Positions 2,706-47,009 of a DNA stretch of 64,000 bases are shown here, one piece after another. The notes under the pieces were generated by a model, which saw only the letters and a list, made by a program, of their open reading frames with translations, was not told the origin of the DNA and ran no database searches. Position numbers and translations under genes: made by a program. The stretch's first letter is position 1. Every line of letters starts with the position of its first letter. This DNA comes from Lytechinus pictus (lineage: Eukaryota): assembly GCF_037042905.1 (NCBI RefSeq), contig NC_087251.1:47990001-48054000 (forward strand), read 5' to 3'.

Positions 2706-3315
2706 TCCATTCATCGGCACAGCTTACAAGTTTGCCAGAATACTATCAGACCTCTTGGTAGATCACAACTAACTTTTGTCAATTAGATTGCGATAAAAGA
2801 ATAATATTAAAACAGTTTTCTATGAAGAACCAGTATGATCTGTTTTAATATTTTTTTATACCAACATACAAATAAATTTCATTTTTTTCCCCCTCACAGT
2901 GAAACCCACTCTGTTCACCGGGGTTACCAGTCTTGTTTTTTTTCATTCATCAGACTAGATACCTTCATTAATCAGAGCTCACTATCATGAACAATCTATA
3001 CTACTCCATTATGTCAGATGAAAGACCAACCTATTCCTGATTGCATGTTGTATAAAGCATCATCTTATTAATAAAATCAGTGAGATTGTGTGTTAAATAT
3101 TATGCGTACATCGGCACTAAAACATGCCGTCAAGTCGTACTCCAAGGTTTGTGAAACACCCTCGGGTATTACACTTGGTTTTGTTGCAAAGGCAAAAATT
3201 CTTGATACTCTGAAACAAGCTTGCATGGTCCACCTGTCCCGTTGTACGTTGCCTGTAAGTGTCCTGCACTTTCTTAAACCCTTCCTGTCCTTCAGCCAAT
3301 CAATCTTTGACAAGC

Positions 3316-43496: not shown

Positions 43497-43751
43497 GGTA
43501 TTCCATATTTGTGATCCGTGGTAGTCTACCGGAATGTGAAGCAGACCAGCTTTTACGCCTGATACCTGCCGTTCAGACTCAGCCACCAAAGCTTCTCTCG
43601 GACCTTGTCCAGTCTTCAAACCAGAGGGTTTCCACCGGTGCAGGGGTGACCCAGGATGACCTTCAGAAAGCGCTTAACGAAAGCAGGAATTTAATATCCG
43701 GTGACAAAGCAGACGATGATCTGCAAGCTGCTATTCAACTCAGTCTTCAAG
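43497..43751 (+). CDS. ATXN3: Ataxin-3 exon 6 (end of Josephin domain; UIM1, UIM2)
   Basis: GYSIFVIRGSLP; DDLQKALNES and DDLQAAIQLS UIM-like helices; 255 bp; donor chosen for phase compatibility with exon 7. Confidence 0.9.
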
Positions 43752-44037
43752 GTGTGGAACTTAATTCATTTTCAATTAGCAGAAATTTTCTGCCAAAAGT
43801 TTCAAATTAGTCTTGTTAAAGGTCAAGTCCACCCCAGGAAAATGCTGACATGGATAAATAGAGAAAATCAAACTAGCATAGTGCTGAAAATTTCATCAAA
43901 ATCGGATGTAAAGAAGAAAGTTATGACATTTTAAAGTTTAGCTTATTTTTCACAAGACAGTGATATGCACAACTAGGTGACTCAGTCAATGATGTCCATC
44001 ACTCACTGTTTCTTTTGTTTTTGTATTGTTTGAATTA

Positions 44038-45610
44038 CCGTATTTTCCGGTATATAAACCGCGGCCGTGTATAAACTCTTTTTACTCTTGGAAAAAAGAA
44101 AAAAAAATTGAGGAAACCAGAAATAGTGAAATCTGTGTAATATTCTATATATTTGAAGGAATATCTTCATGCATTCTCCGTGATACTGAAGCAATAAAAT
44201 ATACGAAAATATATTATTTGTTCGATGCAAAGTGTTTTCACTTCGACAATTTTGACGCAATTATCTCGCTCATGCAATACACAGCGATAATGCCTGTACG
44301 TGGTGCTGAGTCTACGGGCAGCTGCCGGCTGCCCGAGCTCTGCCTCTGGTACGTCCAAAGTGATTCGTCCTGACGTATGAATTTTGCATAAATACTCATA
44401 AAACAGACTTATTACCTGTTGACGACGAATTGGGATTGTGTTTACTTAAGCAACTCAACACCATCACATGACCAAATAATTTGAGAAAGGACTGTTGGCC
44501 GAGCGAGACGAGCAGTCACGTTGGGTTTTAACTTTTTTTTTCTGAGCATACATGGAGGGAGCGCATGCGCGTTGCTCGTGAGTCGCCGCAGCCAGGGGGG
44601 GGGGGGATGGGAAGGGACGATCGGGCATTGCATCTTGCATTGATATTAAGTTTTTTTTTTTAAATGAGAAAAATGATGTGATGTGGATGTGGATGAAATA
44701 CAATTTTTTTAAAATTGTTTTGTTGTCTTCTTGATAGTTTTGTTAATGATATCGTATATTATTATTTTGTAATGATATCGTATATCATATAAAGGGAACA
44801 TTGAATATTTATTTCATATGGGGTATTAAGATTATTCTTTCTTGGAGAATTGGTGGCCCTGAAGAGGGCCCGCCCATAAAATGGGCCAGAGGATTAAGGA
44901 TTTAAAATCCTAGGAACTCCTTGTCGGATGAAGAAGCGTTGAAGATGTCAAGCAACCTCTCGTCGTTGTAAATGAGGTCAGCATCATCAGCATCTCCATT
45001 GCTGCAAAAGCAATCAATACCGGTAGATGGCGCTTCAACACGTACAGTCTTCAAGTTTAGTTAGCTGCACATTAGAAAGGCCTCGAGCAAGATTTATGTT
45101 TCTTTCTGGGATTTTTCTTATTTTTGGTTTGGAAAAGCGATAGTAGGCAGCTTCAAAATTTAGTGCCCTACTGTTCAGTATTAGAGGTATGACATTAGCT
45201 GTCAATTACACTAGCAGATCAGTCAAACAGAACTACGTCTACGGTACTGCGCGACGCTCCGCCTTTAGTTTCCCTGTCGCTAGGCTGCGGCGCGCCCAGC
45301 GCCGGCCAGCCATGCCAGCAGGCGCTACTGAGGTGCGCTCACCGAACATGGATTGGCCGTCCCGCGAACGCCACAACAAAAATCATTAAATTATGAAAAG
45401 AGAAAGACAGAGATGAAGTGAGTTTTATTTCATTCTTTTTACAAGTCCACGTTTCAAACATGTCACACATTCATTATATATGCTAAATTTTCGTCAAGTC
45501 AATCAAGTTTCTGAGGTCGGATTTCTCTGTGTTCGTGTATAAACCGCACCCCCCATTTTCGAGGTTTTCCCTGACGGAAAAAGGTGCGGTTAATACACCG
45601 GAAAATACGG
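44038..45610 (-). mobile_element. Tc1/mariner-superfamily (pogo/Tigger-like) deleted element
   Basis: TA TSD; TIR CCGTATTTTCCGGT.TAT.AACCGC; minus-strand remnant ending LLDIFNASSSDKEFLGF* (stop 44902-44904), resembling the acidic ..D.EF.GF C-terminus of pogo-like transposases. Confidence 0.75.
44836..44870 (-). terminator. Histone-type 3' processing cassette (stem-loop + ACCA + HDE) inside a DNA transposon
   Basis: Minus strand reads GGCCCT-CTTC-AGGGCC ACCA ATTCTC CAAGAAAGA. Confidence 0.75.
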
Positions 45611-45809
45611 TATACAATATGTCATTTTTTATAGATTTGACAATAAGGACCAACTTGACTGAACCATATAGCATTAAACAATACTAATTCCACATGGTTA
45701 GGGAGGAATTAGTCGCTGTGTCATTTGACAATGAGGAAAAAATTAGAATATTTCATATTTCATATAATAAAATACAAAATAGTGAGTGGATGACATCATA
45801 GTCTCCTCA

Positions 45810-45946
45810 ACCCGGCAGGATTAATTCCTTGCATGCACTGAGCGCCGGTGATGGTAGCTCGAGCTGCAGCCGGGGTCATAATAGCAGCGCTTTGTATCCT
45901 CAGGCAAAAGGCACTTTATAAATACAGCTATTATTATTATTATTAT
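45810..45946 (+). mobile_element. 3' fragment of a SINE nested in a Kolobok-like MITE
   Basis: Similar to the 3' half of the SINE at 1740-2040; (ATT)n tail; absent from the sister MITE at 20263. Confidence 0.65.
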
Positions 45947-47009
45947 TTGCATTGGAGGCAGGATGTGCATATAACTGTTTTGTGAAATTAAGTGAAACTT
46001 TAAAATGTCATAACTTTCTTATTTTACATCCGATTTTGATGAAATTTTCAGTGTTATGCTTGTTGGATTTTTCTCTTTTTATTCAAATCAACTTTTTGTT
46101 GGGGTGGACTTGTCCTTTAAGCAATAACCCAAAATAGTGTAAGATTTGGGAACTTCTGCTGTGTTTTAGTTTCAACTTCAGGTGACCATGTGATGTCAGT
46201 GTGGTTATTTATGTAAGTTTCATTAAAAAAAAATATTCTAGGTATGCGCATCAACTGCAATGCGATTGGCTAGGTATCAACATGTATATTTATATCATCT
46301 TTACAGCAGACATACAATATTTTTTTAGGTCATCTATGACCAGGCCTCAAATAGAATGCTGTAACATATTAAATTCTTTTGAAAATAATCTCCAAATTTT
46401 CATTGTCGATATGGTACCTGCAACCTCACTTACTTGGCGGTTTCTGTGAAGCATTTCAATATCATTTGTCGTCTGACAAGTTTCCTTGATTTTGACTGGC
46501 GGAGAAGTGCAGTATTTATAATGGTAACTGTCAGACGAAACATAACTTTGTCAGATAAAACATGTGACAATTCTTTTGTTGAAACTGTTTCCCCGGACAA
46601 TGCCCATCTGTATGATACAGTTGGAAATATGAGAAAGTGGTGTTGGTGGGATGCCACCTCTATGAAAATTTCTAGGCTTTGGAAGTTTGTTTCAAAATAT
46701 AGATTTCCTTGGAACTATGGATAACTTTAATATATTAATGTTTTGTTCATATAAATCAAGGCTTGATATGTGCAGACAGTATGTCAGTAAATTAATATAA
46801 ATAGTGAAAATTATTTCATCAAAATATATTTAATAATCATGATGAGTAATGCTTTGTCTCTCAACCTTTTATTACTTGAAATTACAAAGAAGGACATTAT
46901 TGATGTTTCCCATTTAAACGCATGATAACATTCTTCTGAAAATGTGTCCTTCACGGTTAAGCTTATTTTCAGATTTTTGCAGATTTAGATTGCTTTTTCA
47001 TTTGAATAG

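Follow-up and report, generated by a model that had tools for sequence, protein, structure and literature searches.

A conserved histone-type 3'-end cassette directly behind pogo transposase genes of Lytechinus pictus

The DNA analyzed here is a stretch of 64,000 nucleotides from Lytechinus pictus (contig NC_087251.1 of assembly GCF_037042905.1, positions 47,990,001 to 48,054,000 of the forward strand), referred to below as the window. It carries on its minus strand a TA-flanked, non-autonomous pogo-type transposable element (44038-45610), in which the remnant of a transposase gene is followed by the cassette known from the 3' ends of replication-dependent histone mRNAs: a short stem-loop, ACCA and a histone downstream element (HDE). 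The same cassette stands directly past the stop codon of related pogo transposase genes, where it is correctly spaced, conserved, covarying in its stem and decayed in dead copies, and it recurs in unrelated elements. It is probably a genuine histone-type mRNA 3'-end signal, acquired by a pogo clade in this host lineage and held under selection directly past the transposase stop, so that these transposase genes would make histone-type, SLBP-dependent mRNAs.

In histone mRNAs the consensus stem GGYYYU/ARRRCC carries a U-rich loop of 4 nt, the pre-mRNAs of sea-urchin histones are cleaved behind ACCA, and the hairpin is sufficient on heterologous transcripts. According to textbook knowledge, no cellular mRNAs other than those of histones end in an SLBP-bound hairpin instead of poly(A). 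The original prediction had described, on the minus strand of the window, the order of reading frame, TAA, 31 nt, stem-loop, ACCA, 6 nt and CAAGAAAGA, and the sequence reads exactly in this way. The remnant of the acidic C-terminal tail of the transposase (DADDADLIYNDERLLDIFNASSSDKEFLGF, 44905-44994), defined by its open reading frame (ORF) and by BLASTP to an intact transposase, ends ...DIFNASSSDKEFLGF with the stop codon TAA at 44902-44904. The hairpin GGCCCT CTTC AGGGCC (44870-44855), read directly and recovered in the minimum-free-energy fold, follows after 31 nt and is succeeded by ACCA (44851-44854, with cleavage predicted after 44851), the 6-nt spacer ATTCTC and the HDE CAAGAAAGA (44836-44844), 10 nt past the stem. 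A second hairpin specific to this family, GCCCAT-TTT-ATGGGC (44886-44872), abuts the first on its 5' side, as had been pointed out; it is present in the same fold and in sister copies, and may have arisen from the histone stem-loop by tandem duplication and divergence. The stem is preceded by GGGCG in the whole family, and the caveat that the 5' flank is not A-rich (..AAAC) thus holds. The caveat that the first loop base is C rather than U applies to the window copy, whose CTTC deviates there from the histone form, and not to its family, since TTTC is found in 8 of the 10 family cassettes; judging from these sisters, the C is a private mutation of a dead copy.

The host genome (812 Mb searched; contigs and chromosomes are given C numbers, and sampled loci or copies L numbers) provided the standard against which the cassette could be judged. 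The pattern GGYYCTNNNNAGRRCCNCCAN{3,12}CAAGAAAGA gave 559 matches and a looser pattern 939, versus none for the reversed control of either, which excludes chance. The distance from stem to HDE is nearly always 9-11 nt genome-wide, and the pogo cassettes fall inside this range. Most matches belong to tandem arrays of ~7.3 kb units on unplaced contigs. In one sampled unit (L083, C57:55330-56130) an H2B ORF (Pfam Histone) stops 30 nt before GGCCCTTTTCAGGGCC-ACACAAATATT-CAAGAAAGA, and two chromosomal cassettes sit behind an H1 and an H3. We take CAAGAAAGA to be the sea-urchin HDE and the tandem layout to be that of the early histone genes. The ACCA, the spacing and the 9-mer of the window copy match those of the verified host H2B, H1 and H3 genes and of hundreds of other sites. 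The pogo cassettes therefore have the same form as the histone cassettes of Lytechinus pictus, and the claim that their spacing fits histone-type processing was borne out.

The frame upstream of the window stem-loop is the tail of a pogo transposase, with no histone fold or linker histone in it. A sequence matching the cassette over 38 nt pointed to C3:69402362 (L053), where an uninterrupted frame of 444 aa encodes a pogo transposase with the Pfam domains DDE_1 (1e-34), HTH_Tnp_Tc5 (1e-16) and BrkDBD (1e-7). This protein ends ...DDEEEEFLGF, and 16 nt on stands GGCCCTTTTCAGGGCC-GCCA-ATTTTC-CAAGAAAGA. By BLASTP, the final 30 residues of this frame in the window align with residues 403-434 of the L053 transposase (434 aa; E=6e-4), and the sister copy L076 aligns with residues 336-434 (E=2.5e-25), in agreement with the predicted origin of the peptide. 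The catalytic and DNA-binding domains are thus present in the clade, and the window copy retains the last 30 codons alone. In its domains (BrkDBD/CENP-B_N, HTH_Tnp_Tc5, DDE_1), TA duplication, terminal inverted repeats (TIRs) and internal-deletion derivatives the clade resembles other pogo/Tigger elements of the Tc5 type (DDE_1), from which it differs by the histone-type signal past the stop. The cassette itself is like a histone mRNA 3' end (RF00032 plus HDE) in the form of its stem and U-rich loop, the ACCA, the CAAGAAAGA 9-10 nt past the stem, the 12-31 nt between stop and hairpin and the intronless ORF. Unlike in histone genes, the ORF upstream is a transposase of ~1.3-1.5 kb, and the copies are dispersed instead of lying in histone clusters.

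The conservation of the cassette was followed in lineages gathered by protein homology to the intact transposase, a search independent of the cassette. Five pogo lineages were obtained, with 57-70 % amino-acid identity where scored against the reference transposase. All ten related copies that have the C-terminal F-x-G/D-F tail carry the hairpin 12-24 nt past the stop. The four with uninterrupted frames (L053, 444 aa; L054, 494 aa; L055, 429 aa; L057, 348 aa) combine a perfect stem with the loop TTTC and an unaltered CAAGAAAGA, whereas each of the six broken or partial copies has a defect in stem, loop or HDE: the loop TTGC and the HDE CCAGAAAGA in L056, the stems TGCCCT in L059, GACCTT in L060 and GGCCAT in L076, the HDE CACAAAAGA in L061, and in L082 the 3' stem arm AAGACT (last C to T) together with a deleted HDE. 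The stem GGTCTT/AAGACC of L054 and L057 differs from GGCCCT/AGGGCC by two compensatory changes from C-G to U-A. When 20 cassettes were aligned, 97.5 % of the cells were paired, all unpaired cells coming from dead copies; both sides had changed in three of the six pairs, and the covariation score was reached by none of 500 shuffles. The comparative check suggested with the original prediction, conservation of the cassette past the stop with compensatory stem changes, was thereby passed. Decayed L056, a full copy, lies downstream of a tandem array of N-terminal pogo transposase fragments with a period of ~908 bp (C7:26589570-26598519; L056, L064-L075).

Such a cassette could also be a neutral relic, if an ancestral pogo element had captured the 3' end of a histone gene and its descendants had inherited it without any role in expression. 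The early H2B gene of the host is a possible source, because the spacer ACAAATATA of the L055 lineage (L055:2776-2829) nearly equals the spacer ACACAAATATT of the tandem-array H2B, the spacer being otherwise the most variable part of the cassette. Two more facts suit a relic: the metagenomic relatives described below are devoid of the cassette, and in the young, non-autonomous window family the hairpin is not visibly poorer in mutations than other parts. We nevertheless hold it unlikely. Across the five lineages the mean pairwise identity is 90 % for the stem-loop, 83 % for the HDE and 74 % for ACCAA, versus 32 % for the 5' flank, 48 % for the spacer and 52 % for the 3' flank, a profile not expected of passive inheritance in lineages whose proteins have diverged this far. 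The two compensatory stem pairs, the perfect cassettes in 4/4 intact frames beside defects in 6/6 broken ones and the recurrence of the cassette behind unrelated transposase genes argue in the same direction.

In the intact L054 copy (C18, L054:1420-1495, minus strand, behind the 494-aa frame) the stem-loop is exactly duplicated in tandem. The upstream hairpin of the window family, and a degenerate second hairpin in the repeat family C described below, may be older duplications of the same kind.

As had been claimed, the window element is bounded by TIRs and flanked by TA. Its TIRs are 27 nt long, 93 % complementary and both start with TA; the 5' TIR in ORF orientation lies at 45586-45612 and the 3' TIR at 44036-44062 (TA included in each), and both are homologous to the TIR TACCGTATTTGCCGGCGTA... 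of the L054/L057 lineage. At paralogous sites without the insertion, RNA reads run from 44022 directly to 45611 with a single TA left, which identifies the element as a discrete, TA-duplicating insertion. The sister copies L005 and L006 align with it end to end at 91-92 %. The host sequence of the insertion (43761-44035 and 45613-46100) is a very abundant repeat with an RNA depth of hundreds on both strands, and the empty site in this repeat is spanned by many RNA reads.

The copy in the window had been called non-autonomous, and it is indeed a dead internal-deletion derivative, in which the last 30 codons and the signal have been kept with one loop mutation. The whole window family consists of such derivatives; they have the first 620 nt in common, together with a 3' part whose breakpoints vary. 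Among 21 distinct copies sampled, 10 have hairpin and HDE, one is old and decayed (on C8), and 10 have lost the hairpin by internal deletion or truncation; one deletion form without the hairpin was found with its TIRs at three loci (L013, L015 and L016). Since the hairpin is missing from 10 of 21 TIR-bearing copies, the cassette tracks the 3' end of the ORF and not the TIRs, and is dispensable for mobilization in cis.

The TIRs bear as well on the idea that the intact, low-copy members, in particular L053, are domesticated host genes of pogo origin expressed in the manner of histone genes, the TIR-bounded copies being their decayed relatives. L053 is single-copy with an open frame of 444 aa, and although a 3' TIR-like end was found ~600 nt past its hairpin, 4 kb of sequence upstream of its ORF showed no 5' TIR. 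An inverted-repeat search around the L053 and L055 flanks gave no clear TIR pair, only TIR-like termini by motif, and no strong inverted repeat surrounds L055. On the other hand, the L054 lineage has TA-flanked 28-nt TIRs (TACCGTATTTGCCGGCGTA...) homologous to those of the window element, as well as deletion derivatives; to judge by these sequences, the L054/L057 lineage and the window family are related, genuine TIR elements. The window family numbers at least 21 copies with TIRs, the L055 lineage comprises several copies with TIR-like termini, and the same arrangement exists in Tc1-like and IS1595-like elements. Domestication is therefore improbable, and an mRNA 3'-end signal belonging to the mobile elements themselves is preferred.

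The origin of the cassette was approached through relatives in metagenomes. A contig scan with a transposase alignment yielded 40 loci at 44-60 % amino-acid identity, among which 19 had the same F-x-G-F tail and downstream sequence; none of the 19 showed a histone-type hairpin within 200 nt past the stop or a sense-strand RF00032 match. Likewise, two distant pogo elements in the Lytechinus pictus genome, with 27-29 % identity, are both devoid of the hairpin. With 0/19 relatives bearing it, the cassette looks like an acquisition within this host lineage. In the transposase tree, from which rows shorter than 300 aa had been dropped (13 of 22 kept), the Lytechinus pictus lineages fall on one side of a weakly supported branch (68/30), and the topology would allow a single acquisition. 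In another organism, represented by the metagenome contig L098 (592-1034, minus strand; also L096 and L113), a 128-aa ORF stops 16 nt before GGCTCC-TTTA-GGAGCC-ACCA. This hairpin scores 36.5 bits with RF00032, above the gathering score; the ORF matches HIRAN weakly, at 19.3 bits and under the cut-off, and is divergent from a same-clade pogo transposase that is itself without hairpin.

The cassette was found behind further mobile sequences of the host. At least 33 of 78 listed chromosomal cassette sites lie behind non-histone repeats, 2 are verified histone sites, 10 have no recognisable ORF upstream and 1 is a chance non-hairpin; 32 sites stayed outside this tally. Tc1-like transposase frames (Pfam DDE_3) of up to 394 aa are present in four copies on C14. 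The frame at L084 (C14:9067480-9068280) ends 18 nt before GGCTCTTTTCAGAGCC-ACCA-AATAAC-CAAGAAAGA, with a GGCTCT stem, and the exact cassette is shared by three of the four copies (sister sites C14:9103631 and 9108055). These four copies lie within a ~36 kb segmental duplication, together with the pogo copies L057 and L058. In an IS1595/ISL2EU-like group (family E) a 461-aa frame (L087, C3:5966090-5966690) ends 50 nt before a cassette and has an inverted twin at C3:5970194-5970782; the identification comes from the tail of this frame, which matches a 476-aa DDE_Tnp_IS1595 protein. A 62 %-identical IS1595-like relative at C8:41705037-41705537 adjoins another cassette. The assumption that the GGCTCT-stem sites are all host histone genes was rejected, those on C14 standing behind Tc1-like and those on C3 and C8 behind IS1595-like transposases.

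Three repeat families without a recognized transposase also bear the cassette. Family B is present in six copies (L046:3348-4043 on C22 and five more on C2, C12, C17 and C20) and measures at least 5.6 kb; its 210-aa acidic, serine-rich ORF stops 20 nt before the cassette. The ORF had no Pfam match and one homologue was found; the BEN-like reading is a lead from language-model features, albeit a high-scoring one. In family C (L038-L041, ~2990-3043) a canonical cassette is preceded by the degenerate hairpin CAGCCCTTTTCAGGAGCT ACCA, most of the repeat common to the copies is located downstream of the hairpin, and there is no clear ORF. Family D (L043:2878-3043, C6:18399040) has two GGTCCT-stem cassettes pointing outward from a long inverted repeat, and the sequence between the two contains no ORF; similar strings occur at C3:3993648, C4:22568149 and C18:17926368. 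Upstream of the cassettes at L085, L086 and L044 no ORF could be recognized, and at L088 there is a single 87-aa frame of no assigned identity. Our judgement is evenly balanced on the broader proposition that the SLBP/U7 pathway is a second general mRNA-ending system in Lytechinus pictus, joined independently by pogo, Tc1-like and IS1595-like elements, the repeat with the BEN-like ORF and two further repeats.

A number of observations weigh against a histone-type 3' end of the transposase mRNAs. The window family has no A-rich 5' flank, and its scores with the Rfam model Histone3 (RF00032) stay under the gathering score of 34: 24.2 bits for the window copy (44833-44870, minus strand; E=1e-4 for 301 nt searched) and 27.0 bits for its canonical sister L050; a scan of the whole window with Rfam gave no match at gathering level. 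Among the other cassettes L061 (43.2 bits), L055 (39.4), family B (39.2) and family C (36.7) exceed the threshold, while L054/L057 (32.9) and L053 (29.0) do not, and AAAC or CAAC precedes the stem in L054/L057, L055, L061 and most others. The U7 gene was not located, a genome search with RF00066 being without a match, as was its control. The transposase ORFs are longer than histone mRNAs, which are roughly 0.5 kb. The copies are few and many of them dead, the 5' TIR of L053 was not found, and the 19 metagenomic relatives indicate that the clade does not need the hairpin. The segment identities calculated for the non-pogo families are inflated, since those sites were found by the pattern itself. 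A U7 candidate defined by the HDE complement and a short Sm-site-like motif was discarded, its 9 matches versus 7 in the control being attributable to chance.

The raw RNA reads belong on the same side of the balance, and one contig on the other. Three rRNA-depleted raw-read runs (X9-X11, library strand uncalibrated) aligned to 43500-46100 gave a depth of only 0-12 inside the element, with no significant molecule ends reported. A trough at 44718-44891 is common to all runs, and a small peak at 44892-44978 is for the most part due to the decayed copy on C8 (marked by variants at 44964 and 44968), which diverges before the hairpin. In run X1 a contig of 353 nt has its first base at 44851, the last A of ACCA, and this terminus is suggestive of a 3' end there, although the RNA nature of X1 is a guess and contig termini cannot show molecule ends. 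X1 covers 44851-45518 and 44036-44540 and has nothing at 44541-44850. Its unique flank is 42.7 deep and the multicopy element 5-9, a relation which would fit RNA better than DNA. The predicted co-option of SLBP and U7 is thus supported in its comparative part, by conservation and covariation; for mRNA ends at ACCA, the evidence is this one contig terminus.

Moreover, an AATAAA occurs ~25-95 nt past the HDE in four of the five pogo lineages (~0.2-0.34 expected per 150 nt), in the window copy at 44808-44813 on the minus strand (motif search; 31 nt past the HDE, first base to first base), and polyadenylated transcripts are possible. Both this motif and the lack of a raw-read pile-up of ends at ACCA would suit a different role of the hairpin, which might serve transposition as a structure in DNA or RNA, act as a decoy for SLBP, or cause pausing or termination, the mRNAs being polyadenylated at the downstream AATAAA. 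We regard this as very improbable. The hairpin has been lost from nearly half of the sampled window family with the TIRs kept, in one deletion form at three loci, and neither AATAAA nor ATTAAA occurs within 400 nt in the L055 lineage. An HDE placed at the 9-11 nt ruler distance of the host makes sense only for U7, given the mechanism as described in the available part of PMC11417402.

All three alternatives are disfavoured by the way conservation is distributed over the cassette, by the covarying stem, by the difference that separates intact from dead copies and by the finding of the cassette in several families, and a functional histone-type 3' end is retained as the best explanation. The intronless transposase gene would be transcribed by RNA polymerase II, the 6-bp/4-nt hairpin of the transcript would be bound by SLBP, and the CAAGAAAGA 9-10 nt past it would be paired by the U7 snRNP, after which CPSF73 would cut behind ACCA. 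We infer cleavage, SLBP/U7 dependence, timing and a benefit to transposition from the comparison with histone genes. The product would be a non-polyadenylated transposase mRNA, whose stability and translation would follow SLBP and hence S phase, the histone-rich egg and the cleavage stages. The AATAAA present in four of the five lineages may act as a back-up site.

According to the available part of PMC11417402, in the histone pathway SLBP sits on the hairpin and U7 on the HDE, CPSF73 cleaves between them and no polyadenylation follows. The same source, as far as available, reports that U7 snRNA represses HERV1/LTR12 through HDE-like motifs. These are likewise mobile-element sequences complementary to U7, but their motifs act in repression and lie in human LTRs, and the accessible text describes no hairpin, SLBP or 3'-end formation for them. 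The nearest parallel among the sources available in part is the ENE triple helix: ENE and double-ENE elements occur in the RNAs of plant and of fungal transposable elements, in one case behind a hAT transposase gene (Tycowski, Shu and Steitz 2016, PMC4864102, as summarized in the review PMC13541005). In both cases the gene of a mobile element is immediately followed by a specialised element for RNA 3'-end stability. Unlike the ENE, which in these accounts clamps the poly(A) tail, the pogo cassette would replace polyadenylation and borrow a host pathway linked to the cell cycle. No published description of a transposon with a histone stem-loop was found in full-text searches, with subscription journals and Repbase reports lying outside their reach, and neither 'transpos' nor 'non-histone' occurs in the bioRxiv survey 10.64898/2026.10.14.759114.

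A conserved, covarying and correctly spaced signal behind transposases from several superfamilies points to an ability of mobile DNA to borrow an mRNA pathway coupled to the cell cycle, and it offers natural non-histone substrates for the study of SLBP and U7. For cut-and-paste elements this would be a testable route to restrict the transposase to replicating germline and early embryonic nuclei. If the reading is true, the supply of transposase would be tied to S phase and to the egg and cleavage stages rich in histone mRNA, and the transcripts would be hidden from poly(A)-selected RNA-seq, so that transcriptomes and annotation pipelines based on poly(A) would miss such genes. Sea-urchin embryos are known from the literature of the 1970s to contain a classical poly(A)-minus non-histone mRNA, and transposase mRNAs of this type might explain part of it.

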